Part shown: positions 1 to 61,156 of the stretch, one piece after another
How the letters are laid out: each line of letters begins with the position of its first letter
Position numbering within the stretch: the stretch's first letter is position 1
Assembly (NCBI GenBank): GCA_965202675.1
Contig: OZ241842.1
Location: forward strand, 323,188-387,187
Origin: Candidatus Spongiisociaceae bacterium
GTDB taxonomy: Bacteria > Actinomycetota > Acidimicrobiia > Spongiisociales > Spongiisociaceae
Direction of reading: 5' to 3'
Length of the DNA stretch: 64,000 bases
Notes under the pieces: generated by a model
Database searches by the model: none
What the model was told of the DNA's origin: nothing
The model's input: only the letters and a program-made list of their open reading frames with translations
Position numbers and translations under genes: made by a program

Positions 1-812
1 TCGGCCAGTCCGACGGTTACTTCGGGCAGCTGGACGAGGCCGGGCCGGGGGTATTGCTGTTCATCGCCCCGGACAGCAGGATCGACACCCTGTGGGCCGA
101 GATCCGGCGCCAGATGGAAACGTCGGACAAGGGCATCCGGCTGGAGATCATCGAAACCGGTGATCGAACCCGACGAGCCGGGATAGCCGGTTCGGACAAG
201 CAGCTGATGCTGGTCAGCTGGGCCCTCCTGCTCGACGCCCTGGCCGTTGCCGCTTCCGGCGACGCCAAAGTCTCGTCGGACATTCTGCAGCTGCGCGGTC
301 TGGCCCGGCGGGAAGACCAGGAGGCTTTCCTCCCGATCCATCGGGATGAGTTGGCGCCTTCTCTGCCCCGGCGCATCCGGGGGCTCCACCGCCTGATCAA
401 TGACGTGGTCGACGGCCGAGGTGTTCCGCAGGGTTGGATGAGCGTCGAGGGGTTCCGGGCAACTGCAACCAGCGAAGGATACGGGCGGTATTTTCGATTT
501 ACTTTTACGGGCGTTGCTTTTACGGGCGTTCGCGACAATCAGCTTTTCCTGGGCACCAACTTCCGGCGGTGGCAAGAAGGTTCCACACCTTTGTGGCTCC
601 AGATCCGGGTCCCCCGTTTGGGGTTTTGGGACAAGTTCATTCCGATTCATTTGCAAACCGGCCTGGAATACGAAGGGGTCCTGGAGGATGTCGTGCGCCA
701 GGTAAGGGCCGTCGAGGACATGATCGACCGAGAAGGGGTAAGCCTGGGGCGGGTCCGGGCGGACGATGCGCCGCCCGAAGAGGACTCTCCGGCAGAACCC
801 GGGGCGGGGTGA
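1..812 (+). CDS. hypothetical protein, 5' end outside window; region contains a lower-GC stretch and a short direct repeat (tttacgggcgtt x2)
   Basis: ORF runs in frame from base 3 to stop at 812; no recognisable motifs; codon usage partly atypical. Confidence 0.4.
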   Translation, partial: GQSDGYFGQLDEAGPGVLLFIAPDSRIDTLWAEIRRQMETSDKGIRLEIIETGDRTRRAGIAGSDKQLMLVSWALLLDALAVAASGDAKVSSDILQLRGLARREDQEAFLPIHRDELAPSLPRRIRGLHRLINDVVDGRGVPQGWMSVEGFRATATSEGYGRYFRFTFTGVAFTGVRDNQLFLGTNFRRWQEGSTPLWLQIRVPRLGFWDKFIPIHLQTGLEYEGVLEDVVRQVRAVEDMIDREGVSLGRVRADDAPPEEDSPAEPGAG

Positions 813-3018: not shown

Positions 3019-4302
3019 ATGGCAGAAGCGACGCTCCGGGCGGACGGGGAGGACCTGGCTTCCCTCCCGATCATCGAAGGGACAGAAGGCGGCAAAGCCG
3101 TCGACATAGGGCGTCTGCGCCGGGATGCGGGCCTGGTTGCGTTCGACCGGGGGTACGGCAACACCGCCGAGACCGCCAGCGGCATCACCTTCATCGACGG
3201 CGAGGAGGGAATCCTCCGCTACCGGGGTTATCCGGTCAGCCAGCTGGTGGGGGAATCCTCGTTCCTCGAGACGGCCTGGCTGCTCGACCGGGGCGAACTT
3301 CCTTCCCGCAGCGATCTGGACGGCTATGAGGAGGAGGCCGCCCGCCATGCGGCGCTGCCGGACGGCTTCGCCTCTGTCCTGGAGTCCTTTCCGGCGGGCG
3401 CCCACCCCATGCAGAAGCTGGCCGCCGCCGTGGTGCTGTTGGGGTCGTATTTTCCGGAGGCGGGCGAACCGACCGACCCCGAGTCGGCCCGGTCGGGCGC
3501 GCTGCATCTGATCGCCAAGATGCCCGCCCTGGCCGCCTGGACCTACCGGAGCGGCGCCGACCGCACCTACATCGACCCCCGCCCCGGCCTCGGATACGCG
3601 GCCGACTTCCTCAATATGATGTTCCATCCGGGCGGCAACGCTTCCTACCGGCCCGACCCGCCCAGCGTCGAGGCGATGGAGGCGCTGCTGATCCTGCACG
3701 CCGACCACGGCCAGAACCTTTCCACGTCGGCGGTGCGCCTGGTGGGTTCCAGCCTGACCAACCTCTTCTCCGCCGTCTCGGCGGGGGTCCTGGGCCTGTC
3801 CGGGCCGCTCCACGGCGGGGCCAACCAGCGGGTGATCGAGATGCTCGAAGCCATCCTGGCCGACGGCGGCGACACCCGCCGCTACCTGGAGCGGGCCAAG
3901 GACCGCAGCGACCCGTTCCGGCTGATGGGCTTCGGCCACCGCGTATACCGGAACTTCGACCCCCGGTCGGATCTGATCAAGCACCACGCCCGTTCGCTGC
4001 TCGGCGAGCAGGACGACCCGCTGCTGGCGTTGGCCCTGCGGTTGGAGCAGGAGGCGCTGGCCGACGACTTCTTCATCCAACGCCGCATCTACCCCAACGT
4101 GGACTTCTACTCCGGCATCCTGTACCGGGCGCTCGGCTTCCCCAGCGAGCAGTTCACCGTGCTGTTCGCGCTGGGCCGGCTCCCCGGCTGGCTGGCCCAA
4201 TGGAGGGAGATGGTCGGCGACCCCCAGGTCCGGATCAAACGCCCCCGCCAGATATACACCGGATACACAAGGCGCGACCACACCCCCATCGACCGCCGCT
4301 GA
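3019..4302 (+). CDS. gltA: citrate synthase
   Basis: GYGNTAETASGITFIDGEEGILRYRGYPV and HADHGQNLSTS / GFGHRVY catalytic motifs; 427 aa. Confidence 0.9.
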   Translation: MAEATLRADGEDLASLPIIEGTEGGKAVDIGRLRRDAGLVAFDRGYGNTAETASGITFIDGEEGILRYRGYPVSQLVGESSFLETAWLLDRGELPSRSDLDGYEEEAARHAALPDGFASVLESFPAGAHPMQKLAAAVVLLGSYFPEAGEPTDPESARSGALHLIAKMPALAAWTYRSGADRTYIDPRPGLGYAADFLNMMFHPGGNASYRPDPPSVEAMEALLILHADHGQNLSTSAVRLVGSSLTNLFSAVSAGVLGLSGPLHGGANQRVIEMLEAILADGGDTRRYLERAKDRSDPFRLMGFGHRVYRNFDPRSDLIKHHARSLLGEQDDPLLALALRLEQEALADDFFIQRRIYPNVDFYSGILYRALGFPSEQFTVLFALGRLPGWLAQWREMVGDPQVRIKRPRQIYTGYTRRDHTPIDRR

Positions 4303-4781
4303 TGGACGGCATCCGCATCCCCCGAGAGGAGGCCGAAGCGGCAGGGATGCCCGACGACCTAGATTCGGGAATCCTCGGCGCATACCGCTTTCCTTCCCCC
4401 GCCCGCCGCCGGACCGCCGCCCGCATCTACGCCGCCGCCGCCGGCCTGGCCGCGCTGGGGGCGCTGGCCGGCCTCTCGTCCGGGTTCTGGGCGGTGTCGC
4501 TGGGGCTGCTGGCGATGGCTTTCATCCACACCCAGGCCGCCTGGCCGCTCCGGATCGACCAGGAGGAGGCGTTCCTCTGGGCGGCCGCCGCCGCGCCCTT
4601 TCCGGTCGGCCACGCCTCGGCCGCTCTTGTATTCGTGGGTTTCCGGTCCCGCCCCGTCTGGGCGGTGGTGCTCTACTCGGCCGAGGATCCCCCCCGCCGC
4701 CGGGCGCTGGTGCGCCTGGAGGCCGCCACGGGGGCGCCCCTGGGCGAGACCTACATCGAGGAGCTCCCCCCGCCCGGCTGA
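4302..4781 (+). CDS. hypothetical small membrane protein
   Basis: ATG overlaps gltA stop (ATGA); Ala/Leu-rich predicted TM segments; longer upstream ORF extension overlaps gltA and was trimmed. Confidence 0.4.
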   Translation: MDGIRIPREEAEAAGMPDDLDSGILGAYRFPSPARRRTAARIYAAAAGLAALGALAGLSSGFWAVSLGLLAMAFIHTQAAWPLRIDQEEAFLWAAAAAPFPVGHASAALVFVGFRSRPVWAVVLYSAEDPPRRRALVRLEAATGAPLGETYIEELPPPG

Positions 4782-4855
4782 ACCCTGGGTGTACATCCCT
4801 CAACCACCAGCTGCCGGATCCTAGTTCTGCTCTACGCCGGGAAACCCAACTAGAA

Positions 4856-5503
4856 CTACTCCCCTTGGTGACTCTCCCCTGAATCCGAAGGGACCGTTTT
4901 GCTCTCGAGCCGGATACGCAGCTGGTCGAGGGAACTCAGAGCCCGGTCGAGGCTGGGGGAACGCCGACGAGCCCGGTCGGGGCTCCACGACCCCTGTACA
5001 TATTTCTGCACAATCTCCACATATTCAGGGCCTACCCGCCGCCCGTTGCCCTGACGGGGAGGCACCCCTTCTCTGATCTGCCTCCTTCTTGACTTCCGGC
5101 AGAGGTTGAGCAATGAGATCTTGGGGTCCTCGAGTTCGTCGACCCTGTAGGGAAGCTGACGGCGTACTGCGAAGAAATCGGCAAAGGCCTCGGAGTCGGC
5201 CATAAGCCAGGCTTCGATTGACCGTACAGCCAGGCGGAAGCACATTCCGCCGTTGGCTTGGCCATCGAGAAGGTTTACCCGGAGTTCAGGAACACAGCGG
5301 TCTCGGTCATCTTGATCCAAGTCTCTGATAACCAGCCATGCCGAATGCGCGGCAGATCTGTTGATACCAGGCAACTTCTTGTCGAGTTTTGCCTTCCCTC
5401 CCACTATGAACGGTCGGGCTGGATGCAGTCCCGAGGCTTGAAGAAGTTTCTCAGCCACTGGTTGATCGGTTGGTCCTTCGACCGCGTATCTGACATATAA
5501 CAT
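4856..5503 (-). CDS. DUF4276-like protein, partner of upstream AAA ATPase
   Basis: N-terminal MLYVRYAVEGPTDQ (VEGxTD/E motif typical of DUF4276 family as I recall it); start overlaps ATPase stop by 1 nt; lower GC than flanks. Confidence 0.65.
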   Translation of the reverse strand: MLYVRYAVEGPTDQPVAEKLLQASGLHPARPFIVGGKAKLDKKLPGINRSAAHSAWLVIRDLDQDDRDRCVPELRVNLLDGQANGGMCFRLAVRSIEAWLMADSEAFADFFAVRRQLPYRVDELEDPKISLLNLCRKSRRRQIREGVPPRQGNGRRVGPEYVEIVQKYVQGSWSPDRARRRSPSLDRALSSLDQLRIRLESKTVPSDSGESHQGE

Positions 5504-6657
5504 CAGAATGCCGGAAGACGATCTATATCATCGGGCGCGGTCTCCGGGTTTAGTATTTCAGCAAGATTAAAACCGGCATCCAAGAAAGATTCTATATCGG
5601 GAATCTTTGTTGCCGGCAAGGCGGTCGTTCCTTCTTCACCGGGTTTGAGGATGAGAATTTCGTCCAAGCCCAGACCGGGGTCTTCCAACATCTCGGTGGA
5701 GTGGGTAGACAGGATGAACTGCGAGCGGTTGCCTCTTGCCGCCTTGTGCAAAATGGTGGGAAGCCAGCGCACGATGGCGGTGTGAAGCGACAGCTCCGGC
5801 TCCTCCAGGAGGATCACGCGGCCCTTTTTCCCCGCTTTTTCTTGGATCATCCACAACAATCCGATCAGCCGCAGCGTACCGTCCGAAAGATCGTGCTCGC
5901 TCTGTTTAGCCCCGGATTGCCGCCAGTGTTTGTACCGGGCTGCGAGGTGCGGCTTGCCGGCATCGTCGCGCTCAAAGGACAAATCGTCTAGTTGCGGCAC
6001 TGCGATGCGCAAGGCGGCGTTGATCCGTTTCAGACGCGAATCCCTGGTGCGTTCGGCGGTCCCGGCGAGGCGCACCAGGAAATCACCGCCGAACGGGTCG
6101 TCTTGCCTGCCGTGGCCGAGCTCGGGGTCGCGGATGATCTGGGGCACCAGGTGCATATATCTGACCTCTTCGAGAAACTCTGCGATCGGTCGGAACCCAC
6201 GGTTGGTGTTCACCTGTTCCAGTGCGGTCTGGGTCAGGCGCTCTGCATCTTCTTCGTCGTTCTGATCCGGCCGATCGAGGATGGTTTGGCCGTCTTTGCT
6301 GACTGTCTCCCGTCGAACGCTGGGGCGGTGCAGTCCCCGCTGTTCTGCTGTAAAATGCAACTCATATACCCAGGAAGGGCCGTCGTCCGCGGCTTGTAGC
6401 TCAAGCTTGATCCCTACCCATCCGTGGTTGTAGTTGCGGGCGGCCAGGCACCGCACCCGTTTGAGGCCGCCGCGTACGGCTACGGCGTGTTGAAGTCCGC
6501 CGCCGACGGCGGCTATATCCCGCAGGAAACGAAGGGCGTCCAGCAGGTTCGATTTTCCAGAGGCGTTCGGGCCGACCACCAAGAGGCGATTCCCTACTGC
6601 GGTTTCTACCGACTTGAAGTTGCGCCAGTTCTTCAACGTGAGATGTTCTATCCGCAC
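5503..6657 (-). CDS. AAA family ATPase (AAA_21 / ABC-type, OLD/RecF-like N-terminus)
   Basis: Walker A VVGPNASGKSNLLDAL at N-terminus, ABC signature-like LSDGTLRLIGLL, Walker B ILLEEPELSLH, H-loop STHS; 384 aa. Confidence 0.85.
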   Translation of the reverse strand: MRIEHLTLKNWRNFKSVETAVGNRLLVVGPNASGKSNLLDALRFLRDIAAVGGGLQHAVAVRGGLKRVRCLAARNYNHGWVGIKLELQAADDGPSWVYELHFTAEQRGLHRPSVRRETVSKDGQTILDRPDQNDEEDAERLTQTALEQVNTNRGFRPIAEFLEEVRYMHLVPQIIRDPELGHGRQDDPFGGDFLVRLAGTAERTRDSRLKRINAALRIAVPQLDDLSFERDDAGKPHLAARYKHWRQSGAKQSEHDLSDGTLRLIGLLWMIQEKAGKKGRVILLEEPELSLHTAIVRWLPTILHKAARGNRSQFILSTHSTEMLEDPGLGLDEILILKPGEEGTTALPATKIPDIESFLDAGFNLAEILNPETAPDDIDRLPAF

Positions 6658-6939
6658 CGCGGTTCACCTTCCGGCTGGAGCCAGTGACGGCATTATAGGT
6701 CAGCGGCCCGGGTAATATGGCTCTTCGAAGTTGAGCGGTGAGGGGTGATATGAAGGGAAGGAGGAATCCGCGGGGGTCGGGGTGAGGTCCTCCATTATCG
6801 AACGCCGAAACTTTCCCGTACGCCGCCTCGCGGGACCATCAACATACAAGGAGGAATACCCGCCGCCGCAACAACCACACGCCTCATTCGGAACCGCCTC
6901 ATCCGGTCCGTAACCCTTCCCTCACCTGCCCATCATCCA

Positions 6940-7188
6940 AGAACGCGAAAACCCGCGCACCACCCCCGGCTGCGCCGGGACCCGCCCCCGCCTCCTCCAC
7001 CAGCACCGGATCCATCGCTTGGGCAAGCCGCCCCTGTTCAGGCGCCGGCGCCCGAACAGACAGTATTCCGATAATGACCGCCGCGCTCTCCGGAACTCCG
7101 GCGACGGTGTTTGTGTGTCAGCACACACATAGTACCGCAAACCTATGACAAACCCAATACCCTCATCCCAGAACGCGAAAAATATTCC
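6940..7188 (-). repeat. promoter-bearing intergenic repeat element, copy 1 (minus orientation), bounded by AGAACGCGAAA motifs
   Basis: Shares >80% identical core with copies at 22800-23051, 57601-58215, 62441-63030. Confidence 0.75.
7122..7157 (-). promoter_or_regulatory. sigma70-like promoter TTGGGT-N17-TACTAT reading toward AAA-ATPase/DUF4276 operon
   Basis: -35 at 7152-7157 (rc TTGGGT), 17-bp spacer, -10 at 7129-7134 (rc TACTAT); same architecture conserved in all element copies. Confidence 0.5.
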
Positions 7189-7221
7189 TGCCGGCGCCGG
7201 GAGGGGCCGGCCTGTCCCCGG

Positions 7222-9231
7222 TCAGCGCGGAGGGCGGGCGGCGGCGGACAGCTCCTCCACCGCCTCGTCCAGGGGTACGCCGCGCCGGTCCCGCTTCTCC
7301 CCCCGCAGGCGCAGCCCCACCGTGCCGGCGGCGGCGTCCTGGTCGCCGGTAACCAACAATGCCGGGATCTTCCGGGTGATGGCCGAGCGGACCTTCTCCC
7401 CCAGCCTGCCCGGCCCGCTTCCGGCCTCGACCCGCAGACCCCGCTCCGACAAGGCGGCGGCGGCCTCGGATGCGTAGGCCTCATGGCGGTCGGCCACCGG
7501 GATCACCGCCGCCTGCACCGGCGCCAGCCACATGGGGAACGCCCCGGCGTAGTGCTCGATCAGCACCCCCAGGAACCGCTCCACCGACCCGAACTTGGCG
7601 GAGTGGATCATCACCGGGCGTTCCCGCCCATCGGCGGGGGTCACGTATTCCAGGCCGAAGCGTTCGGGAAGGGAGAAGTCCACCTGGATGGTGGACATCT
7701 GCCAGCGGCGCCCGATGGCGTCTCGGATGTGCACGTCGATCTTCGGGCCGTAGAAGGCCCCCTCCCCCTCCGCCGCCGTGTAGGGGACGCCCGCCTCCCG
7801 CAGGGAATCCTCCAGGGCCTGTTCGGCCAGCTGCCAGAGGCCCAGCTCGCCCACCCACTTCTCCTCGGGGCGGGTGGCCAGCTCCGCCTCGAACTCCTCG
7901 AATCCGAAATCCCGGAGCAGGCCGAGCACGAAGTCGAGGTGCATCAGCAACTCGGAGGGGACCTGCTCCCGGGTGCAGAAGGTGTGGGAGTCGTCCTGGG
8001 TGAACCCCCGGGCCCGCATCAGGCCGTGGACCACGCCCGACCGTTCGTAGCGGTAGACCGCCCCCAGCTCGGACAGGCGCATGGGCAGCTCCCGGTAGGA
8101 ACGGGCCGCCGAACGGTAGATCAGGACATGGAAGGGGCAGTTCATGGGTTTGACCCGGTACTCGTCCTGCTCGTCCATCTCCATGCCCGGGTACATGTTC
8201 TCGGCGTAGAAGTCGAGGTGGCCGGACACGCCCCACAGGCCGGCCCGCGCCAGGTGGGGGGAGTTGACGAAGTCGAAGCCGTAGGCCTCGTGGGCGCGCC
8301 GGCTGTAGCCCTCCACCAGACGGCGCAGCATCCCGCCCTTGGGATGCCACACCGCCAGGCCCGGCCCCAGCTCGTCGGGAAACGAGAACAGGTCCAGCTC
8401 GCGGCCCAGCTTGCGGTGGTCCCGCCGGGCCGCCTCCTCGATCCGATGCAGGTAGTCGTCCAGGGCCCTGCGGCTCTCCCAGGCCGTCCCGTAGATGCGC
8501 TGGAGCTGGGGCCGGCGCTCGTCGCCCCGCCAGTAGGCGCCCGCCGTCCGGGTCAGCTTGACCGCCTTCAGCCGGCCGGTCGAAGGCAGGTGCGGCCCCC
8601 GGCACAGATCCACGAATCCCTCGTTGCGGTAGACCGAGACCGCATCGCCCGACTCCACCTCCGACCCTTCCGCCGAGCGGATGATCTCGGTTTTGTAGGG
8701 GTGGTCCCGGAACAGCTCCAGCCCGGCGGCGCGGGGCATCTCCTCCCGCACGAACGGCTGGTCGGCCTCGATGATCCGCTGCATCTCGGCTTCGATCCTC
8801 TCCAGGTCCTCGGGGGTGAAGGGGCGTCCGACGTCGAAGTCGTAGTAGAAGCCGTCGGCGATCGCCGGGCCGATGGCGAAGGTGGCCCCCTCGAACAGGT
8901 TCAACACCGCCTGGGCCAGCACATGGGCGGCCGAGTGCCGCAGCACCGACCGGCCCTCCTCCGAGGACTCGGTGATCACCGCGAACCGCCCGCCCGCCTC
9001 GATGGGGCGGTCCAGGTCCATCATCACCCCCTCGACCGAAACCGCCACCGCCGCCGCGGCCAGGCGCGGTCCGACCGCCTCGGCCGCCCGGCGGCCGGTT
9101 ACTCCGCGGTCGTGGCGGGCAATGGTCCGGTCGGGAAGGATCAGATCGATGGTCTCGATGGCCACAGCAGGATCGACCTCGGTTCGTTCGGGGCCGCCAT
9201 CGTAACCGCTCCGGGCGCGCCGCCCGGTCAC
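7222..9231 (-). CDS. thrS: threonine--tRNA ligase
   Basis: TGS/editing/class II core motifs (SAAHVLAQAV, MNCPFHV, GAFYGPKIDV, anticodon-binding C-term); exact start uncertain. Confidence 0.9.
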   Translation of the reverse strand: MTGRRARSGYDGGPERTEVDPAVAIETIDLILPDRTIARHDRGVTGRRAAEAVGPRLAAAAVAVSVEGVMMDLDRPIEAGGRFAVITESSEEGRSVLRHSAAHVLAQAVLNLFEGATFAIGPAIADGFYYDFDVGRPFTPEDLERIEAEMQRIIEADQPFVREEMPRAAGLELFRDHPYKTEIIRSAEGSEVESGDAVSVYRNEGFVDLCRGPHLPSTGRLKAVKLTRTAGAYWRGDERRPQLQRIYGTAWESRRALDDYLHRIEEAARRDHRKLGRELDLFSFPDELGPGLAVWHPKGGMLRRLVEGYSRRAHEAYGFDFVNSPHLARAGLWGVSGHLDFYAENMYPGMEMDEQDEYRVKPMNCPFHVLIYRSAARSYRELPMRLSELGAVYRYERSGVVHGLMRARGFTQDDSHTFCTREQVPSELLMHLDFVLGLLRDFGFEEFEAELATRPEEKWVGELGLWQLAEQALEDSLREAGVPYTAAEGEGAFYGPKIDVHIRDAIGRRWQMSTIQVDFSLPERFGLEYVTPADGRERPVMIHSAKFGSVERFLGVLIEHYAGAFPMWLAPVQAAVIPVADRHEAYASEAAAALSERGLRVEAGSGPGRLGEKVRSAITRKIPALLVTGDQDAAAGTVGLRLRGEKRDRRGVPLDEAVEELSAAARPPR

Positions 9232-12653: not shown

Positions 12654-13070
12654 TGAGCCGTTCCCTTCGCGGCTGCGCCCTGCGGCTGCGGGGTTCCGCC
12701 GGGATGCCGGAGCGCCCCGCCCTCCTGACAGACCGATGACCGACAGGCCGTCGGTCCGTGTCTTGGGGGGCCGGGCGCACCCTCCCGGGGCGCCGCAGGT
12801 TTACACCGCCGTAATTATATGAAGAGCGTACTCTAGACGAGGGAGGCCGCCGTAATCAACGATTCCGCCGATCACGCTCCCCCGGCGCCTCGAGCGGCGG
12901 CCTTCCGGCAGGACGGGAAGGGCCCGGCGGCGGGTTGCGGCGAACCCGAACCCGACTGCTCCCTGCCGGCGCCGCGCAAGCCCGAACCCTTTCTGCGAAC
13001 CCGCCGGTCGAGCCCTGCCCCGCCCCACCGATCTGCTGACAACGAACCGCCTTCGGGCCTTTCTGTGAAC

Positions 13071-13250
13071 CCACCGGTTGGGCCTTTGCCGTCCTGTACG
13101 GCCAGTTCGTCGGGCAGTCCATTGCCCGCTGTTTTTTTGTGGGCCCGTCGGTTGGGCCTTTGCCGTCCTGTACGGCCAGTTCGTCGGGCAGCAGTCCATT
13201 ATCCGCTGTTTTTTTGCGGGCCCGTCGGTTGGGCCTTCACCGGGTCAGCC
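13071..13250. repeat. ~75-bp tandem direct repeat (2.3 copies) containing hairpin GCCCGC-TGTTTTTTT-GCGGGC
   Basis: Units at 13071-13144, 13145-13221, partial 13222-13250; near identical. Confidence 0.7.
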
Positions 13251-13354: not shown

Positions 13355-13591
13355 AGAACGCGAAAAAAGCCGCCCCCTCGCCCCGCTTCACGGGCCCGGC
13401 CCCCACCTCCGCCACCTGGATTCCGGACGCGGTCGGTCAGTACCCCGGAGGGCCGCGTTCGGAAGATGATCCCTGTCACGGTCTGCGCCGGCTGCGGACC
13501 GGAGGTGCTTTCGGCTCCTCCATTGATACAGCATCGGTGCGACAAGGTCAATACCCTTGTGCGGGATCCGGCGGGATTTTTTTGTCATTCC
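13355..13591 (-). repeat. promoter-bearing repeat element, variant family, copy 5 (~90% identical to 52906-53140)
   Basis: AGAACGCGAAAAA...TTTTTTTGTCATTCC boundaries; internal GGTATTGACC-N17-TATCAA on minus strand. Confidence 0.7.
13516..13551 (-). promoter_or_regulatory. sigma70-like promoter TTGACC-N17-TATCAA reading toward MerR gene
   Basis: -35 rc at 13546-13551, -10 rc at 13523-13528. Confidence 0.45.
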
Positions 13592-13642
13592 GCGGTTTTA
13601 TCCGATGAGCCCCCTCGACCACTGTCCGTTTCGGGTTCGGGG

Positions 13643-20317: not shown

Positions 20318-21007
20318 GTGATAGATGAGGGTACACAAGAGCGCCTGCTGGAGGCGACCAGACAATTTTGGTCTTATCATGTGACGACCGATGAGTTTCA
20401 GAGTCTCGCATCCGGCAAAGAGATCGGACACCGTATCGCCGACTATGTTGAAGAACACACTGTTGGCTTGATCGATGCAGAGTTTTCGACCGGGTATCAA
20501 CTGAAAAGGGATGGACAACGGGCGGCTCGAGGAATGGGCGACGTATGGGTCAAGTCCAATGACATCTTCAATCCGATTAATATAAAGTCCGGAGAATTAT
20601 TCAAAAAAGGTCAACCCAACATGGTATCTCTCAAAAAGCTTCTACGCGGTGTGCTTGAAAGAAAGATTGACTCCTATTACCTGCTCATAGTAAAATTTGA
20701 TCCGATAAACAAACGGGCAGATATAAATTTGGTTGATCTTCTAGACTATCTGGATTATACACATTTTGATTCAGGACCGGGGCAGATAATGCTCCGCGAG
20801 CGAGACTTCTATGAGGTTCTTGATTCCGATTATGAACCACCGCTCTTGACGTTACGAGAAAAGGTGGATATCCTCTTGAAAACACTACAGGAAGGCGACG
20901 AGAGACTGCAAAAGAACCGCGAAAAGGCACAAAAAGAGCTTATGGGACTGGCAGAACAGTTTGACATTGAAATGCCGATCAACCAGCAATCTCTGAATAT
21001 CGGATGA
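20318..21007 (+). CDS. hypothetical protein; candidate restriction endonuclease partner of downstream methyltransferase
   Basis: 229 aa, AT-rich codons, stop overlaps MTase start by 4 nt; no confident nuclease motif seen by eye. Confidence 0.45.
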   Translation: MIDEGTQERLLEATRQFWSYHVTTDEFQSLASGKEIGHRIADYVEEHTVGLIDAEFSTGYQLKRDGQRAARGMGDVWVKSNDIFNPINIKSGELFKKGQPNMVSLKKLLRGVLERKIDSYYLLIVKFDPINKRADINLVDLLDYLDYTHFDSGPGQIMLRERDFYEVLDSDYEPPLLTLREKVDILLKTLQEGDERLQKNREKAQKELMGLAEQFDIEMPINQQSLNIG

Positions 21008-22656
21008 GCCAGGCAAAAGATAAGCGCGTTCCGAAACGGCAGAAGGGGCAGTTTCTTACCCCTCAGCCTCTGGCGCTGGACGTACTGTCCGATATCGAGT
21101 TCAAAAGAACCGATCGTGTACTCGAGCCGGGCTTTGGAGAGGGGTCCTTTCTCCTTCCCTTGATTGAGGCATTTCTGGAACTGTATGATGGTCCGACTGC
21201 CAGCCGACTCGACCATATATTGAACAACAATGTTTGGGGTGTCGAGATAGACCCTGCTATGTATGACAAGGCCCTTTCGAATATTGAAGAAAGAATAGCT
21301 CCACTTCCTGCTTCACATAATCTTTTACTAGAAGACTATTTTGAAACAACTTTTGATAGTAATACTTTGCGCTCTGATTTCGCTAGCGGCTCATTTCGGT
21401 CCAGCCTGGACTTTACGCATGTTATCGGCAATCCACCGTTTGGCGGAACAATTGCGTCCTATTTACAGGATTCACTCGACAAAGTGCTTGGTTGGCGTCA
21501 TGGAATAAAGATCAAAAAGGAGACCTACGCTTGGTTTATAATAAAGAGTCTAGATCTATTAGCGGATGATGGAATACTCAGGTTCATATGCAGTGACACC
21601 TTTCTTACGATATATACAATGCGCGGCCTTCGCAATGCTTTGGCGCTGGAAGGACAACCCACTGTATGGCCACTCAATAAATTTTCGGAAGAAACTTCTT
21701 ATCCGATGGTAGTTCTCGATTGGGTAAAAACAGGCTCTGCAGACCACGTACTAATAGATGGAGATCCTATACCTATTACAGATATTGAGCGGACTGCCAA
21801 TCTATCTTGGGGGTTGAATCGAGACATGGTTCCATATTTTCAAGGGCCGTCCCTCGGTGAATTCATGGTTGCGACGAGTGGAATGACAACAGGAAACAAT
21901 TCTCTGTTTATACGTGAAGTTCACGATAATATTATTTCAGAACCGTATGAGTTCACTTTTGAGGAGGCGCCGATTACTTTGGGCAAAGAGATACAGCGAG
22001 CAAGACTGGGCCGCTTATCTGCCAAAAGGATAAAGCAAATCAAAGAGTTGGAAAAACAAGGAAAGACCAGGCGTGAGCTGAAACCCCTTAGATTGCCTTC
22101 TCCTAACGTTATCGACCTGCCGAACGAAGACTATCTGCCTTATAATAAAGCTACCGGCAGTCTTGTATACAGTCGTCCTACTCACTATATATATTGGAAA
22201 GATGATGGAGATGCTGTTCTGACATATAAGAAAACCGGCAACTGGTATCTTCATGGAATAGGAGGCGCCAAGTATTTCGGCAGAGAAGGTTTGACCTGGC
22301 GGCTGATCTCTGGCACTCTCGATGTCAGATACCTTCCTACAGGATACATACTCGACAGCGGCGCTCCTTGCGCCTTCCCGCGTCCTGGAGTATCGCAAGA
22401 AGAAATGCTGTTCATCATGGGATGGACGCTGACCGACAAATGTACTCAGATCCTCAAGCAGGTCATAAACCATACGATGAACATTCAAGGCAAGGACTTC
22501 GAGCGGTTGCCGTACCCCTTTTGGGTAGGCAGCGACGAACGCTCCGAAGCAGTATCGTTGGTTATGAGTATGCTCGATGAAGGTTTCGATGGGCGTCAAT
22601 TCTCAAGACAGGACCCGGAGTTCGATGCTTTGGAATCTCTATTCAGGATGGCATAG
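21004..22656 (+). CDS. N6-adenine-specific DNA methyltransferase (gamma-class, TaqI/Eco57I-like) with C-terminal target-recognition region
   Basis: Motif I VLEPGFGEGSF, motif IV IGNPPFGG; 550 aa; very low GC relative to genome. Confidence 0.8.
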   Translation: MSQAKDKRVPKRQKGQFLTPQPLALDVLSDIEFKRTDRVLEPGFGEGSFLLPLIEAFLELYDGPTASRLDHILNNNVWGVEIDPAMYDKALSNIEERIAPLPASHNLLLEDYFETTFDSNTLRSDFASGSFRSSLDFTHVIGNPPFGGTIASYLQDSLDKVLGWRHGIKIKKETYAWFIIKSLDLLADDGILRFICSDTFLTIYTMRGLRNALALEGQPTVWPLNKFSEETSYPMVVLDWVKTGSADHVLIDGDPIPITDIERTANLSWGLNRDMVPYFQGPSLGEFMVATSGMTTGNNSLFIREVHDNIISEPYEFTFEEAPITLGKEIQRARLGRLSAKRIKQIKELEKQGKTRRELKPLRLPSPNVIDLPNEDYLPYNKATGSLVYSRPTHYIYWKDDGDAVLTYKKTGNWYLHGIGGAKYFGREGLTWRLISGTLDVRYLPTGYILDSGAPCAFPRPGVSQEEMLFIMGWTLTDKCTQILKQVINHTMNIQGKDFERLPYPFWVGSDERSEAVSLVMSMLDEGFDGRQFSRQDPEFDALESLFRMA

Positions 22657-28175: not shown

Positions 28176-29081
28176 TTACCGCAGGGCCCGGGGATGGGCC
28201 TCCACGTACACTTCGTGCAGGTGCCGGAGCGACATGCGCGTGTACACCTGCGTGGTGGAAACACTAGCGTGTCCGAGGATTTCCTGTACGGTGCGCAGGT
28301 CGGCGCCCCCCTCCACCATGTGGGTGGCGGCCGAATGGCGCAGGACATGGGGCGAGATGCGGGCGGCGGGGATGCCCGCCCGTTGCGCATGCTTGCGCAC
28401 GATTCCGAAGACCCCCTGGCGGGTCAGCCGCCCCCCCCTGGCGTTGAGGAACACCGCCCCCGGATCATCCCCCGGGCGGCGCAGCTCCAGCCGGTCCGGA
28501 AGGTAACCCTCGATGGCCTCCGCGGCGGGCCGGCCCAGCGGCACCATCCGCTGCTTCGACCCCTTGCCGGTGACCAGGGCGCTGCGGGTGTCCAGATCCA
28601 GCTCCGCCAGATCGAGGCCCACCAGCTCGCTCACCCGCACCCCCGTCCCGTACAGGGTCTCCAGCATGGCCCTGTCCCGCCTGCCCAGCACCGTGTCCGC
28701 GGGGGGCGCCTCCACCAGGCCGATCGCCTCGTGCACATCGAGCGCCTTGGGGAAACCCAGCCGGCTGCGGGGCGTCTCGGCGAACCGGGTGGGGTCCTCC
28801 TCCGCCTCCCCCTCCGCCACCAGAAACCGATGGAACCCCCGCACCGCCGCCAGCTTGCGGGCCACGGTGGAAACCTCCATGCCCCGCTCATGCAGCGAGG
28901 CCAGATACCCGTCCACCAGCTCCGGCGTGGGCTCCTCCCCCTCCAGAAACGCCAGATACCCCTCCAGGTCCCCCCGGTAGGCGGTAACCGTGTTGCGGCT
29001 CAGCCCCCTCTCCACCGCCAACGCAGACAGATACCCCTCCGTCTGGGGTTCAAGTGGATGGGGTTCGACCTTCTGCGTCAT
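28176..29081 (-). CDS. xerD: site-specific tyrosine recombinase XerD
   Basis: Catalytic R..HxxR..Y block (PHVLRHSAATHM, LGHASVSTTQVYT); chromosomal context next to pyrG as in other actinobacteria. Confidence 0.85.
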   Translation of the reverse strand: MTQKVEPHPLEPQTEGYLSALAVERGLSRNTVTAYRGDLEGYLAFLEGEEPTPELVDGYLASLHERGMEVSTVARKLAAVRGFHRFLVAEGEAEEDPTRFAETPRSRLGFPKALDVHEAIGLVEAPPADTVLGRRDRAMLETLYGTGVRVSELVGLDLAELDLDTRSALVTGKGSKQRMVPLGRPAAEAIEGYLPDRLELRRPGDDPGAVFLNARGGRLTRQGVFGIVRKHAQRAGIPAARISPHVLRHSAATHMVEGGADLRTVQEILGHASVSTTQVYTRMSLRHLHEVYVEAHPRALR

Positions 29082-29397
29082 GCAAGCCCCTATGCAGGTG
29101 ATTAATGCAGTCTCCCCATGTTACGGCCGTAAGGCCGTGATCAGTGGAACATTCTGCCGCGCTCATCGCCTGCCTCGACTCGAAGGCCACCGAGCGAATT
29201 GCGCTCTCATGTATTCCGGGGATACGAAGCTCTTCATCACGGATCAGCTGCTGGCAAGTCTCGACCCGTGTACACTGGACGAAGGGACAGAAGCGGTGTG
29301 CACATCCCCGCGTGGTCGGATGCTTCTCCGGATGTAACATTGCCGCTCGTTTGGGAACCCACTGGATGATTCAGCGGGGAGGAAGGATGAAGGAACG

Positions 29398-29634
29398 ATG
29401 ACTGTCGCTGACGTGTTTTACGACATCACCGAAACCGCCGAAGGCTGGGAAGTCGCCGCTGGCGGCCGGGGCGGCAACTGGAAACGGATGTACCCTACCG
29501 CTCATGCCGCGCAACAAGCCGTCCTCGCCGCCGAGGAAGAACAAACCGCCGCGGAAGGCCGTGACCGGACAGCAGTGATCGACTGGACGCCGGTCACCGC
29601 CGTCGGGAGGGCGGTCGTCGCGGCTATCACCTGA
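29398..29634 (+). CDS. small hypothetical protein (78 aa)
   Basis: Good RBS GGAGGAAGG upstream; lower-GC island. Confidence 0.4.
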   Translation: MTVADVFYDITETAEGWEVAAGGRGGNWKRMYPTAHAAQQAVLAAEEEQTAAEGRDRTAVIDWTPVTAVGRAVVAAIT

Positions 29635-29649
29635 AAGGAACCAAGAACG

Positions 29650-29877
29650 ATGACAAACCATCTGTCTTTCTTCGAGTACCTTGACCGGGCGGCCTGCGAC
29701 GAGCCGTACACCGACGAGGATTGGCGTCTTGCAACAGAGCGGGTGCGGGCAATCCGCGAAAGAGTGTTGGCCGATCCCAGGATCGCCGAACTCGAAGACC
29801 GTAAATATGCCGAGATTACCAGGCGAGTCCAAAAGCTCAAGGCGGTTCGCCGCGACGGCGGACGGCTCGAGTCATAG
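29650..29877 (+). CDS. small hypothetical protein (75 aa)
   Basis: RBS AAAGGAA upstream; 15-nt gap to previous gene. Confidence 0.4.
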   Translation: MTNHLSFFEYLDRAACDEPYTDEDWRLATERVRAIRERVLADPRIAELEDRKYAEITRRVQKLKAVRRDGGRLES

Positions 29878-29937
29878 ATGTTGGTTCGTCCCGAATCACC
29901 AATGAGCGGCGGAGCGGTTGTTTGTATTCGCTTACGA

Positions 29938-30876
29938 CTATCGACGGCCGCCCAATCGGGCGAGCGAGCGGTGAGGCCTGACAAAGAGGTTGTAATAGTG
30001 CCAATTAACATAAGGAATAGCAGGCGGATCATATCCGGCCTGCGGCATTCGCATATGAGATCCTATCAGCTCCATGACAGGTAACTGCGCCTCCCCTCCC
30101 CGCGTAATCATGTGCTGGCTAACGAGTATTCGATGATCTTGGTCCAGTCCTAGAGCTCCGCGGTCGAACAGCCGGTGATGGAACACACAAAGCGCCATTC
30201 CATTGGTGATGTGGTCGGGCCCGTGATATGAACGCATCTTTACGTGGGCGGCATCGATCGCCAATGGTCGGCCCTTGAGACTCCCATTGAATCCACAGAA
30301 CGAACATTGGTTCTCATAAGCCAGCAGAACAGTGCGCCTGAAGTCGGGATCTCTGGGAGCCGCGACTGTCGTGACAAGATGCCCCAGATTGACCTCTTCA
30401 AGAATTTCAGCATGGAGAGTGTCCGGGAACTCCATATCCAATAGGGTGTTGACCACCCTGGAACGCACTTGCGGGCTCTGCAAAGCCAGCTCGAAATCGG
30501 GGGCCAAATAGCCGGTGGCCTCTTGCCGCAGGAACGGTGTACTTTCCCGTACATTCTGCGGCATGGCGGCTATATCGTTGCCGTTGGTATCCTCTACCCT
30601 CCACAGATCGCGTTCGGTTCCGAGGTATACGAAGGGGTTGGCCACTCGAAGCACGGTGCCCAGGCGATGCTTGTCCATCAATTGTTTCAAGTCCTCCTCA
30701 GCATCTTGGAAGGAGATTCGGGTAGGCAATCTTGCGGCTTGTCGTCCGATGAGCCACAGCAACAACAACGGTTTGTACGGCGCGCGTCTGTCCCCGCCGG
30801 CAAATCGCCTTATCGATCTGACCTTGTCGGCCCAATGTCTGGCGCTCTCCGGATCTGTCGTTCTTATGCGCTGCAC
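29938..30876 (-). CDS. HNH endonuclease family protein (HNH_2-like C-terminus), candidate modification-dependent restriction enzyme
   Basis: CSFCG...AAHVKMRSYHGPDHITNGMALCVFHHRLFDRGALGLD HNH signature at C-terminus; ~200-aa uncharacterised N-terminal domain. Confidence 0.75.
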   Translation of the reverse strand: MQRIRTTDPESARHWADKVRSIRRFAGGDRRAPYKPLLLLWLIGRQAARLPTRISFQDAEEDLKQLMDKHRLGTVLRVANPFVYLGTERDLWRVEDTNGNDIAAMPQNVRESTPFLRQEATGYLAPDFELALQSPQVRSRVVNTLLDMEFPDTLHAEILEEVNLGHLVTTVAAPRDPDFRRTVLLAYENQCSFCGFNGSLKGRPLAIDAAHVKMRSYHGPDHITNGMALCVFHHRLFDRGALGLDQDHRILVSQHMITRGGEAQLPVMELIGSHMRMPQAGYDPPAIPYVNWHYYNLFVRPHRSLARLGGRR

Positions 30877-30928
30877 GTCGAGGGTAAATCTAGCTCATGC
30901 AGAAAAGGCCTGCTCTGCGGGATCGGGG

Positions 30929-32236
30929 TCAACGCCGCTCCTCTCCCTCCGTCCGCTCCTCGGACGCCTCCGCGTCCGCCGCCCAGATGATGAGGCGCAG
31001 CTCGCTGTCGTCGATCACGGTGTACTCGGGCCGCCGCCCCGACAGGGCGCGGCTCTCGTCGAGGATGATCGGCACCCCGTCCCCCCGCCGCTCCATCATG
31101 TAGGTACGGTTCAGGCGCTCGTTGTCGACGGGGCATCTGACCAGGAGGGAGGCGATCAGCTCGTTTCTGCTGTGCTGCCGATACTGCATGCCTTCCGTTG
31201 TCAGCGTGTTGGTGAGGCCGCCCGGAACGTACAGCTCGATCCGATCCTTGAACATATGCAGCCTGATCCGGGCACCCGCCATCGAATAATCACGGTGCGC
31301 CACCGCGTTCACGAGCGCCTCGAACACGGCGCGCTCGCTGTATTGCGGCCGCTCCGTCCGGGCCAGTTTCTTTGCAGCTCTGGTGAACATGTTCTTGCGG
31401 ACAAAGCCAAGAGCCTCCATAACCTGGGTGTCCAGAGGGCCGACAATGTCGCGGGCGTCTGGTTGATAGTTGATATCTGATCTCTCTCCGGTGTAACTGA
31501 CTGCTTGAATGTATGCATGAGGTATCCGGTCGCTCGGTGTTCGGGTACACATCAGAACCCCGGCTACTGTGATACCGGCATTGCCGCTTCTATCGTAAGC
31601 GATGATCCTCATGTTGCTCAGTGTTTCCTCGGTCATATCAATATTGTGCCGGAGATATTTACCGACCAAAACAGGGTCCAGCATATCCGGTGTGGTTCTA
31701 GGAACTATCAATTCATCAAATCTTATCATTCTATTTTGACTGTGTTCTTGAAATATCCTCGAAAGCAATTCTGGCCTCATTTTACGGTTGGAGTTTCCTG
31801 TTCTACGAAAGTAACCGTTTGGACTACTGTGTACAAACATACTGCGGGCGACATCAATATAGATTATTGGAACGGGGTTGCCCTCGAAATCAGGCAGTTT
31901 GACCTTGCGGATCAATACATCTAGCGGAGGATCCACAGAATCGCCGCATATTCCGCTTGCCCATTCTTCTACAGCCGCTAGGTGTTCGATAGGGATTCCC
32001 AGGACTTCATTATCTTTATCAGAGGCTCCCAGAACAACAGTCCCGCCTCTGCTGTTTGCCATGCCCGCCATGGTGTCTGCCAGGTCATTGCGCCTTGGGC
32101 CGACCACTTTGGAACCGCTCAAGAAAACTTGTTGAAGCTCCAGGTTCAAATCTTCACCGAGCCGTATACGGCTCGCCAAACTTCTGGTGTCTACCATGTT
32201 CCTGTACCTCGTTTTCTGCGCCCGGTGGCAAGCCAA
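30929..32236 (-). CDS. AlbA_2 (Schlafen-like) + HATPase_c_4 domain protein (COG2865-type putative DNA-binding ATPase/regulator)
   Basis: N-terminal GGTVVLG...DNEVLGI divergent-AAA/AlbA_2 block, C-terminal NAVAHRDY histidine-kinase-like ATPase motif; 435 aa. Confidence 0.65.
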   Translation of the reverse strand: MACHRAQKTRYRNMVDTRSLASRIRLGEDLNLELQQVFLSGSKVVGPRRNDLADTMAGMANSRGGTVVLGASDKDNEVLGIPIEHLAAVEEWASGICGDSVDPPLDVLIRKVKLPDFEGNPVPIIYIDVARSMFVHSSPNGYFRRTGNSNRKMRPELLSRIFQEHSQNRMIRFDELIVPRTTPDMLDPVLVGKYLRHNIDMTEETLSNMRIIAYDRSGNAGITVAGVLMCTRTPSDRIPHAYIQAVSYTGERSDINYQPDARDIVGPLDTQVMEALGFVRKNMFTRAAKKLARTERPQYSERAVFEALVNAVAHRDYSMAGARIRLHMFKDRIELYVPGGLTNTLTTEGMQYRQHSRNELIASLLVRCPVDNERLNRTYMMERRGDGVPIILDESRALSGRRPEYTVIDDSELRLIIWAADAEASEERTEGEERR

Positions 32237-32248
32237 CGCCGCTTGGGG

Positions 32249-34324
<2,076 letters not shown>

Positions 34325-34783
34325 CTAGTTGGTTTCGCGTAAGTGAAGGAAGTTAATCGCTGTGTTGTCGTCCTTGCCTTCTAGGTAAAGGTACAAGTCT
34401 ACAGTGAGGAGCGGTGTTTCCGGTTTGGCGGCCTCGAGAAGCGCCGCATCCGTCAACCCAAGCCGCTTGAACTCGCTGTTCTGTGAAGCCGTCCGACTTG
34501 CAATGACGATTTCTTCACTTCTTTGTATTAGTAGTTGAAGCTGTTCAAAGAGCGCAGATCTTTCAGGCTCTCTGTGCTGGGCTAGTAGATTTGATGCTTC
34601 TGTGAGGGTGTTCGGTGTTACATATACATGCTTGACAGGTTTCAATAGCTCGCGCAAAAGCCTGTAATCATCAGATGTATAACCGCCGAGCCTGCGATGT
34701 TTGTATATCAAACCAATATCTACATCACCTGCGACCAGCAGCGTCAGCAGGTTTGCATCTATAAAGTATCCGATAGGTGACAC
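34325..34783 (-). CDS. PIN-like domain protein
   Basis: N-terminal FIDANLL (Asp1), TEAS, LTDAALL acidic residues in PIN-like spacing; GTG start 4 nt after upstream gene stop; low GC. Confidence 0.5.
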   Translation of the reverse strand: MSPIGYFIDANLLTLLVAGDVDIGLIYKHRRLGGYTSDDYRLLRELLKPVKHVYVTPNTLTEASNLLAQHREPERSALFEQLQLLIQRSEEIVIASRTASQNSEFKRLGLTDAALLEAAKPETPLLTVDLYLYLEGKDDNTAINFLHLRETN

Positions 34784-34787
34784 TGGC

Positions 34788-35072
34788 TTAGTTAGGTGCA
34801 GGCAAGATTCGATCTTCGACCGATAAGATCTTACCTTCTTTATCGTCGATGCAAACTACTTTATAGGCGCGGCCTTCGGCTCTGGTCATTATTGGATGAC
34901 CGAGCGGACCATTTACCTGTTCCCACTCTCTATTGAAGCCGACAGTTATGAACCAATTATCCGAGTCATAATCAAGCTTGATCTCTTCGAGCCCGACAAA
35001 GTTTATGCCTTCTTCACCGAAGAGCTCGATGATGTGCTGCTTGGCTGCTCTTGCGGCTTCTTTGACATCCAC
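34788..35072 (-). CDS. hypothetical protein, upstream partner of PIN-like gene
   Basis: GTG start with AAGGAG RBS; 93 aa; translationally coupled to PIN-like gene. Confidence 0.4.
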   Translation of the reverse strand: MDVKEAARAAKQHIIELFGEEGINFVGLEEIKLDYDSDNWFITVGFNREWEQVNGPLGHPIMTRAEGRAYKVVCIDDKEGKILSVEDRILPAPN

Positions 35073-35225
35073 CGTCGGCTCCTTGTTTATTGGCTGCGGC
35101 CCTCTGCCGCAACTATGGTAACTGCCGAGGGCGGGCTCGGCAAGCGCGAAAATCGACCGCACCAGCACGTATGGAGGCGGCTTCCTTTCAACGATTCTGT
35201 GCCGCATGAGCTTACAGGGCGGGGG

Positions 35226-52905: not shown

Positions 52906-53140
52906 AGAACGCGAAAAACCCCGCCCCGCGCCCCGCTTCGCGGGCCCGGCCCCCACCGCCTCCACCAGATGTCCGGACGCGTTCGGTCAGTACCCGGCAG
53001 GTCGCGTTCGGAAGATGATCCCTGTCACGGTCTGCGGCGCCTGCCGACCGGAGGTGCTTGCGGCTCTTCCATTGATACAGCATCGGTGCGACATCGTCAA
53101 TACCCTTGTCAGGGATCCGACGGGATTTTTTTGTCATTCC
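52906..53140 (-). repeat. promoter-bearing repeat element, variant family, copy 6, inside a ~780-bp dop-pup intergenic insertion
   Basis: ~90% identical to 13355-13591; left flank 52690-52905 carries three CTTTCTGCGAACCC motifs as in 12975-13300. Confidence 0.7.
53066..53101 (-). promoter_or_regulatory. sigma70-like promoter TTGACG-N17-TATCAA reading toward pup-prcB-prcA
   Basis: -35 rc at 53096-53101, -10 rc at 53073-53078. Confidence 0.45.
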
Positions 53141-60998: not shown

Positions 60999-61156
60999 CT
61001 GCGCCGCCGCCGGGCCGGGCTCCGGCGGACCGTTCGGCGGAACAGGAGGGCCGGGGCCGGATTGCCGCTGTTCCGGGCCCTCGGGGGGATATCATCATCG
61101 GCGGCGCAGCACCGGAACCGGAATGCGCATCCATTGCCTGGCGTTGCGGGAGCAGT

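Follow-up and report, generated by a model that had tools for sequence, protein, structure and literature searches.

The closest described relative of the locus treated here is HEC-01 (Hma-embedded candidate 01), an entry of PADLOC-DB v2 that combines an ATP-binding cassette (ABC) ATPase with a TOPRIM protein and is found both inside and outside Hma (Payne et al., bioRxiv 10.1101/2024.01.29.577857). The locus lies in a stretch of 64,000 nucleotides (nt), hereafter called the window, from a Candidatus Spongiisociaceae bacterium (GenBank assembly GCA_965202675.1, contig OZ241842.1, positions 323,188 to 387,187). It consists of the gene for a 384-amino-acid (aa) ATPase, named A, and the gene for its 215-aa partner, named B. 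Judging from their profile matches, A and B almost certainly form an HEC-01-type two-gene module, and this module probably acts in defense against phages or other mobile elements in the manner of OLD or PARIS, with a probability of roughly 0.65. Three observations are new: strains with about 99% identical flanks differ strongly in their HEC-01 alleles at this locus (80–97% identity), A and B stay adjacent across phyla, and B is disrupted in some of the strains.

Known ATPase-Nuclease Systems and Their Relation to the Locus

In the work that introduced HEC-01, an ABC fold is reported for HEC-01A and an OLD-like metal site is noted in the system; a candidate was retained only if more than 100 genomes had it outside Hma as well (Payne et al., bioRxiv 10.1101/2024.01.29.577857). 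In genomes from cold seeps, HEC-01 is among the most abundant candidate types, and one representative is reported to have made E. coli B less sensitive to at least one of T4, T5, and T7, that is, to have been protective. Published work counts DUF4276, the family that B resembles, as part of the Toprim superfamily and identifies it with Mad4. Deletion of mad3 or mad4 weakens defense by MADS, a methylation-associated system of eight genes, in P. aeruginosa, and the MAD3/MAD4 pair is missing from some MADS loci. In the PARIS paper, DUF4276-partnered ATPases fall within the tree of AAA15/21 defense ATPases.

The locus in the window has the same organization as HEC-01: A, an AAA_21 ABC ATPase matching HEC-01A, is followed on the same strand by the adjacent B, a small TOPRIM protein with a predicted OLD-like metal site that matches HEC-01B, and both matches run over the full length. 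It differs in being solitary between thrS and gltA, without embedding in Hma, and in that B is on a branch mostly below the Pfam DUF4276 threshold; the host, moreover, is probably from an uncultured lineage of Acidimicrobiia. The sequence-only reading had taken the pair for a candidate defense module, and the literature indeed describes the same pairing of ATPase and TOPRIM protein; because the pair is PADLOC's HEC-01, that reading is largely right but not new.

Other systems are more distant. PARIS consists of AriA and the DUF4435 protein AriB: A matches AriA at 1e-33 only, and B has no AriB or DUF4435 match, being DUF4276-like and about 90 residues shorter than AriB. Furthermore, PARIS is often borne by phages or satellites, whereas the module here is chromosomal and has no counterpart in the phage collection. 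The trigger Ocr and the target tRNA are known for PARIS, while their counterparts here are proposed only by analogy. With OLD and GajA, A shares the ABC head motifs, and the best structural match of B is BpOLD, with equivalently spaced acidic residues; the ATPase and Toprim parts are fused in proteins of 510–630 aa in those families (OLD classes 1–2 and GajA), whereas they are separate open reading frames (ORFs) here. Gabija in addition needs GajB, a UvrD-like helicase, and the locus has no helicase gene. MADS resembles the locus in its Mad3/Mad4 pair of an AAA ATPase and a DUF4276 protein, but mad1, mad2, and mad5–8 are absent at this locus, the MAD3 score of A is below the cut-off, and the flanking genes are thrS, a 159-aa ORF, and gltA instead of the mandatory MAD6–8. 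AbiL (AbiLi and AbiLii) and Septu (PtuA and the HNH protein PtuB) likewise combine an ABC/AAA_21-like ATPase with a small nuclease. In those two comparisons, AbiLi is matched by A at 8e-27 and PtuA in the P-loop only, both scores being far weaker than that for HEC-01A, and the partner here is a Toprim protein.

An HEC-01-Type Gene Pair

Gene A (5503..6657, minus strand) starts with GTG and gene B (4856..5503, minus strand) with ATG. At their junction, GCATTCTGATGTTA on the minus strand, the stop codon TGA of A and the start codon ATG of B overlap by 1 nt in TGATG.

Protein A matches the PADLOC profile HEC-01A (PDLC04180) at 2e-153, residues 1–381 being aligned to positions 1–378 of the 382 in the profile. 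Its match to Pfam AAA_21 (1.3e-36, residues 27–324) agrees with the family predicted from sequence alone, and P-loop matches of the AAA_15 and SMC_N type are also found. Other PADLOC matches, to AriA, AbiLi, and mad3 (5e-24), are all far below that to HEC-01A, and those to GajA and Old comprise terminal motifs only, the similarity to GajA being confined to residues 1–47. The motifs occur in the order typical of the ABC clade, and not of AAA+: Walker A GPNASGKS (29–36), the Q-loop with conserved Q143 and Q148, LSDGT (257–261) with the signature-like LSDG (257–260), Walker B and D-loop in VILLEEPE (281–288), and the H-loop STHS (317–320). Among 76 homologs, conservation of the catalytic motifs is 95% or higher. 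Thus, the N-terminal ABC/OLD-like Walker A, the signature-like motif, Walker B, and the H-loop that had been read from the window are all located.

Protein B has the N-terminus MLYVRYAVEGPTD, in which VEGPTD occupies residues 8–13. It matches the PADLOC profile HEC-01B (PDLC04194) at 3.1e-59, with residues 3–199 aligned to positions 5–201 of 204. NCBIfam holds no model for B, PADLOC and Pfam give no AriB, DUF4435, AbiLii, or PtuB match, and a sequence search of the PDB with the B-family profile returned nothing meaningful. An AlphaFold2 model built from the family alignment (pLDDT, predicted local distance difference test, 93.7; pTM, predicted template modeling score, 0.88) has a three-layer alpha/beta fold with strands at 3–8, 27–33, 56–62, and 87–93, a Glu after beta1 (E9), and a DxD after beta3 (D61/D63), that is, the features of a Toprim domain. 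Its top structural match is the Toprim and helical region of BpOLD, in line with the Toprim/OLD-like nature suspected from the sequence. Six residues (E9, G10, D13, D61, E97, and D103) do not vary among 50 sequences, and D63 and D65 reach at least 90% conservation. The spacing of E-x3-D, DxD, and the Glu after beta4 appears to parallel the metal-binding residues E400/E404 and D455/D457 and the helical-domain E508 of BpOLD, a correspondence based on spacing and the model instead of superposition. B is therefore best described as a Toprim protein with a probable OLD-like two-metal acidic site and a predicted nuclease role.

Over positions 4750–6750, the guanine-plus-cytosine (GC) content is 0.53–0.62, compared with 0.69–0.74 in the flanks, and GC at third codon positions (GC3) is 0.69 in A and 0.62 in B, compared with 0.83–0.92 in the genes for EF-G, gltA, the 159/193-aa ORF, and thrS. 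The base composition of A-B is foreign. The overlapping minus-strand pair with lower GC described in the sequence-only reading is hence borne out by the ORFs, the junction, and the base composition. Upstream lies thrS (7222..9231, minus strand), a conserved flank with 99.3% aa identity to the syntenic locus L001, from whose Pfam annotation the identities of thrS and gltA are taken. On the other side, gltA (3019..4302, plus strand) precedes the 159-aa ORF (4302..4781, plus strand), a conserved flank that is convergent with B; the pair had been placed between gltA and thrS, and these two genes do enclose it, although this ORF intervenes between gltA and B. An identical 159-aa protein is encoded on eight other contigs; no Pfam match is recorded for its orthologs in L001 and related contigs, and PADLOC gives none. 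No att-like direct or inverted repeats surround the cassette, the locus has no integrase or tRNA gene, and the exact A protein of the window has no record in the contig index.

Distribution and Linkage of A and B

When one genome per species was scanned, 193 stretches with relatives of the B subfamily were obtained. The closest are from metagenome-assembled genomes (MAGs) of Acidimicrobiia, namely, Ca. Spongiisociaceae (70% identity), Sva0996, Acidimicrobiales, and Aldehydirespiratoraceae; farther ones belong to Vicinamibacteria, Thermoanaerobaculia, Myxococcota, Planctomycetota, Spirochaetia, Chloroflexota, and others. Of 83 loci, which range from Acidimicrobiia to Myxococcota, Acidobacteriota, Planctomycetota, and others, 82 have an A homolog immediately preceding B, and in 45 of 74 loci the end of A and the start of B share 4 nt. 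The conserved order and the overlap therefore indicate an obligate, translationally coupled unit. In the Ca. Spongiisociaceae MAG contig OZ251535.1 (L003/L004, 8838–10606), the pair is inserted within the his operon, between hisD and hisB, shows 80% (A) and 70% (B) identity to the proteins of the window, and is also low in GC3.

Alleles and Loss of B in a Nearly Clonal Background

A search for contigs that encode the identical gltA or 159-aa protein, or a close homolog of B, yielded 14 more. The relative contigs are designated L001–L002 and L084–L097, with L003 left out as a member of another family; L091 is on a 3.16-Mb contig (ERZ25070167), and the others are from metagenome assemblies. Because the proteins of the flanking genes are 96–100% identical to those of the window, these relatives are treated as one population.

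Between the window and L001, the flanks (EF-G, gltA, the 159-aa ORF, thrS, and two more) are 99.0–99.9% identical in protein and 98–100% in DNA, with a synonymous divergence (dS) of 0–0.02. In the same comparison, A and B are only 87% and 86% identical, DNA identity varies between 80 and 96% per 100 nt, and dS reaches 0.22 in A and 0.12 in B. The ratio of nonsynonymous to synonymous divergence (dN/dS) is 0.32 for A and 0.66 for B, compared with 0.05–0.17 for the flanks. As dS of A and B is at least 10-fold above that of the flanks, older alleles must have entered a nearly clonal background by recombination; for the same reason, relaxation in situ is rejected as the sole source of the divergence.

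Five A alleles are 86–91% identical pairwise, and six B alleles 79–100%. The alleles are mosaic: the window and L090 agree in 96.7% of B but in 90.4% of A, and the last 32 residues of B are identical in the window and L001. Variable sites are concentrated in residues 101–140, 201–220, and 341–360 of A and 21–80 and 161–180 of B, while the catalytic residues of both proteins are invariant across all alleles. By these sequences, A and B are functional genes that evolve under purifying selection.

There are also strains in which B is destroyed. In L091, L087–L089, L092, L093, and L096, B is cut to its first 25 codons (by tblastn in the case of L091), and wherever the contig continues past the remnant (L091, L092, and, partly, L087 and L089), a gene for a 513-aa HNH-domain protein comes next on the opposite strand. 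In L091 (10521–13578), A is intact (88% identity) and the HNH gene is located between A and the 25-codon remnant. Replacement of the Toprim effector by an HNH one in this strain ("effector swap") was considered and rejected, since a B remnant beyond the HNH gene marks a disruption; the HNH gene has no PADLOC match and may be a selfish element. Independently, B of L094 (4312–5272) is broken after codon 43, and a DDE transposase gene (DDE_Tnp_1_4) follows. An additional gene is seen in L084, whose flanking proteins are about 96–97% identical to those of the window: at 419–1900, a gene for a 493-aa Fic-domain protein (SoFic/PDC-S04-like in PADLOC) is located between a repeat element, described below, and A-B. 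This could be a second defense or toxin gene at the same locus.

A Probable Role in Defense and Its Alternatives

By analogy with the systems above, A may oligomerize and hold (sequester) or gate B, and the variable insert regions of A would sense a cue of infection. ATP binding or hydrolysis by A would then license B, which is freed or activated and would cut nucleic acid by two-metal catalysis, either invader DNA or a host RNA or DNA target, so that infection is stopped. These mechanistic details are less certain than the defense role, which is itself deduced, phage tests of other HEC-01 representatives being split into one positive and one negative. Allelic turnover combined with recurrent effector loss is what costly immune genes typically show, and it gives independent, circumstantial support for defense.

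Several points weigh against a role in defense. The negative phage test concerns an HEC-01 representative that protected E. coli from none of the phages used (Payne et al., bioRxiv 10.1101/2024.01.29.577857), and ATPase-nickases of the OLD family can serve purposes other than defense, as in the case of archaeal Cran1. Complex formation by A and B, the trigger, and the substrate are all drawn from analogies with PARIS, OLD, and Gabija. B itself scores 23.9 bits against Pfam DUF4276 (PF14103; E 5.7e-5, residues 8–127), below the gathering score of 30.2; VEGPTD and the DUF4276-like character noticed in the sequence stand. Since 36 of 50 aligned members of the B family match DUF4276 at E ≤ 0.01 (best 8e-9) in spite of the sub-threshold score of B, B belongs to a divergent branch of the family; some of its homologs carry a precomputed PF14103 match.

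The neighborhoods also count on this side. The two nearest genes on each side were surveyed in 29 diverse loci (113 proteins, E ≤ 1e-10; genes called with a GC3>GC1>GC2 filter that was checked against known calls). PADLOC matches among them are type IIG restriction-modification (two), mad3 (two), and PDC-S01, AbiEi, DrmMI, PD-T4-6, mad6, and HEC-05 (one each). The commonest Pfam families are of housekeeping type: short-chain dehydrogenases, antiporter subunits, MFS transporters, his genes, and a tRNA synthetase. HEC-01-like modules are thus usually alone among housekeeping genes and not in classical defense islands, which agrees with a remark of Payne et al. (bioRxiv 10.1101/2024.01.29.577857) on their own candidates. 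The defense-island setting invoked in the sequence-only reading is therefore only weakly present, and the argument for defense from guilt by association is weakened. Hma/MADS genes are absent from the window locus and limited to the one mad6 and two mad3 matches in the surveyed loci. Moreover, the B subfamily has no match in the phage collection and one weak match among plasmids.

The alternative that survives best is a selfish, toxin-like addiction module, in which a toxic B is restrained by A and the pair is kept by post-segregational killing or drift without net protection. Its patchy, horizontally acquired distribution, the solitary insertion among housekeeping genes, and the negative phage test all fit such a module, and so does the fact that B and not A is repeatedly destroyed in conspecifics, as expected if B is costly. 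It is nevertheless quite unlikely, because dN/dS is below 1 and the catalytic residues of both proteins are invariant over wide phylogenetic distances, and because the hypervariability outside the catalytic core is typical of antagonistic coevolution. Besides, one HEC-01 representative is protective, mad3 and mad4 are needed in MADS defense, and the subfamily is nearly absent from plasmids, where addiction modules thrive.

A cellular role outside defense, such as DNA repair or chromosome processing, would recall SbcCD, RecF/RecN, or the OLD-like housekeeping protein Cran1. The N-terminus of A does resemble RecF, SMC, and Rad50 heads, and the pair occupies the same chromosomal position in all conspecific contigs seen, none of which presents an empty site without the cassette. 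Yet the RecF/SMC matches are limited to the P-loop region of about 45 residues, the composition is foreign, the pair occupies different loci in related genera, and its alleles diverge extremely beside near-identical flanks. B is, furthermore, dispensable, because it has been lost in several conspecific strains, and such a role is very unlikely.

Highly improbable, finally, is an orphaned mad3-mad4 accessory pair of MADS/Hma that is unable to work alone: HEC-01 was discovered embedded in Hma, DUF4276 has the Mad4 fold, and A matches mad3 of PADLOC and NCBIfam MAD3 (70.2 bits), but the latter score is far below the cut-off of 420, Hma/MADS genes are missing from this locus and from most of the 29 surveyed ones, and the candidates kept by Payne et al. 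all occur outside Hma as well.

A Dispersed Repeat Element Upstream of A

Between thrS and A lies a copy of an intergenic repeat that is dispersed over the window. Four copies, about 250–450 nt long and about 80–90% identical to each other, are found: copy 1 at 7190–~6870 (minus strand), copies 2 and 3 at 57653–~58100 and 62485–~62950 (plus strand), and copy 4 at 23046–~22700 (minus strand). The motif TTTCGCGTTCTNGGATGA delimits the element and occurs seven times in the window, compared with 0.02 expected. All four copies keep TTGNNN-N17-TACTAT (TTGGGT, TTGAAC, TTGAAT, or TTGACT), followed by several GC-rich hairpins, and in copies 1–3, a second terminal direct-repeat motif, TTTTCGCGTTCT, is 229–231 nt from the first. 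In copy 1, the second terminal motif TTTTCGCGTTCTNGGATGA (6930..6951, minus strand) repeats 7160–7181 in direct orientation at a distance of 230 nt and comes after a GC-rich hairpin; hairpin and motif together could be a weak terminator, though none was called.

Copy 1 follows the terminator-like hairpin of thrS and points at A. Copy 2 separates a trmI-like gene from one for an EamA transporter, and copy 3 is upstream of a pyridine-nucleotide-disulfide oxidoreductase gene, so named from its N-terminal sequence without a family search. Copy 4 comes after cmk and is directed at the 3′ end of an island of low GC that resembles a restriction-modification unit. Short tandem repeats with a unit like GTCTCGAATGGCGGGGG are present at 57905–~58010 and 62735–~62815 (plus strand), directly after copies 2 and 3, and none follow copy 1.

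The element is a strain-variable feature of the thrS side and not a component of the cassette. It is missing from L001 and L090, where A-B is intact, the spacer between thrS and A is 152–155 nt, and the flanks are about 99% identical. Because these two strains keep the intact pair without it, the cassette is independent of the element. In the pairwise alignment with L001, a segment of 482 nt in the window (6709..7190, minus strand) is replaced by 74 unrelated nt. The segment comprises copy 1, with a core at about 7190–6930 and an extension to about 6870, and about 160 nt without counterpart in the other three copies. Beside it, 69 nt toward thrS, including the 31 nt 3′ of the thrS stop codon (7221–7191) that form a GC-rich hairpin, and 78 nt adjoining the start of A are nearly identical in both. 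L091 has the element upstream of A nearly base for base, and L084 has a part of the segment ahead of Fic-A-B. Exact scans with the element core over GTDB species genomes and JGI metagenomes gave nothing, and it is found in L091 and L084 only.

Expression of A-B most likely starts at a conserved region proximal to A and/or proceeds by read-through from thrS. The A-proximal region (6658..6708, minus strand) has the Shine-Dalgarno sequence GGAAGGTGA (6672–6664) and a −10-like TATAAT (6697–6692) located 34 nt 5′ of the A start, which is TATCAT in L001 and L091; it has no recognizable −35. The region is near-identical in L001, which has no element, and in L091, which has one. Where present, the element may add transcription.

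A less likely alternative is that TTGGGT-N17-TACTAT of the element serves as a promoter belonging to the operon, with A-B transcribed behind a leader of about 465 nt. The motif (7157–7129, minus strand) is inside copy 1, oriented toward A, and unique in the window, with 0.02 chance matches expected, and the −10 box and the spacing are kept in all four copies. No intrinsic terminator is called between it and A, copies 2 and 3 are likewise upstream of co-directional genes, and in L091 and L084 the element is again found toward thrS, preceding A or Fic-A-B. On the other hand, L001 and L090 have an intact pair without the element, the proximal TATAAT/Shine-Dalgarno region is conserved independently of it, and copy 4 is directed at the 3′ end of a methyltransferase gene that converges on it, with nothing to drive. 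Besides, the hairpin and T-rich motif at the element end might terminate transcription, and a strict consensus scan of 4600–7400, which called neither a sigma-70 promoter nor a minus-strand terminator, missed the motif. The motif and repeat copy 1 pointing into the operon had been correctly recognized beforehand, with the leader set at about 440 nt where the distance from the −10 box to the GTG of A is about 465–472 nt. The accompanying idea that the operon owns an element-derived promoter is not supported, given the absence of the element from two strains with the cassette, its dispersal as a repeat whose other copies precede unrelated housekeeping genes or point at the end of another island, and a proximal box that is conserved regardless.

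The nature of the element has several candidates: a mobile promoter cassette, a small RNA gene, or an element like a miniature inverted-repeat transposable element (MITE). Neither the leader nor the element matches an Rfam family (whole window at the gathering threshold; 6600–7260 at the E-value threshold). As a single sequence, the element folds no better than shuffled sequence (z −0.4), and RNAalifold finds no covariation among the four copies. The hairpins after thrS, at the element end, and after B also fold no better than shuffled sequence. A coding role of small ORFs in the leader was rejected, as their frames diverge between the copies.

Other Features of the Window

A low-GC island (0.44–0.52) at 20318–22656 (plus strand), between ispH and cmk, is abutted on its 3′ side by copy 4 of the element. 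It contains a 229-aa ORF without a family match and the gene for a 550-aa methyltransferase of the Eco57I/N6_Mtase type, which has PADLOC matches to PglX, type IIG, and type II methyltransferases, and it looks like a small restriction-modification unit. A second low-GC island (0.52–0.62) at about 28800–32400 (minus strand) harbors genes for an HNH_2 endonuclease (29938–30876) and a protein with Schlafen AlbA_2 and HATPase_c_4 domains (30929–32236); they give weak PADLOC matches to HNH/type IV restriction endonucleases and matches to prokaryotic Argonaute (pAgo)-associated domains.

GC or GC3 is lower also at about 34200–35400, where the ORFs 34325–34783 and 34788–35207 have no PADLOC match and the latter has no Pfam match either. 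A 252-aa ORF at 54–812 (plus strand; GC3 0.74) matches nothing in Pfam or PADLOC. A repeat family unrelated to the element is represented twice, at 13364–13598 and 52914–53147, by copies of about 235 nt that are 84–90% identical and 39.5 kb apart, and a tandem duplication of 74–77 nt (13060–13242) adjoins the first of them. Within the ORF 60596–62434, which has no Pfam match, a direct repeat of 300 nt is found at 61515–61814 and 61995–62294 (77% identity, 480 nt apart).

Implications

HEC-01 is widespread and its phage tests conflict; the locus does not add a system of a new kind. In annotation, the pair should be labeled as HEC-01-type ABC ATPase and Toprim nuclease, instead of "AbiEii toxin" and hypothetical protein.

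A rather unlikely, joint reading of the element and the alleles is that the element is mobile and either bears a promoter or encodes a small RNA, and that the allelic series of A maps the surfaces that sense the trigger. The element is indeed polymorphic between near-identical strains, and it is upstream of A on the thrS side in three contigs with different arrangements: intact A-B in the window, Fic-A-B in L084, and the HNH-disrupted locus in L091. A further copy, number 4, adjoins the restriction-modification-like island. If this were true, the element might rewire the expression of acquired defense genes or mark sites of recombination, and the variable segments of A (101–140, 201–220, and 341–360) would be a natural map of trigger sensing.

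Apart from this joint reading, the locus is a natural experiment, in which flanks of about 99% identity enclose intact but strongly diverged mosaic alleles or B-null versions of the same module, with or without a promoter-like repeat. It makes approachable which parts of the ATPase set specificity, whether the nuclease carries a cost, and whether the pair functions outside Hma and MADS.

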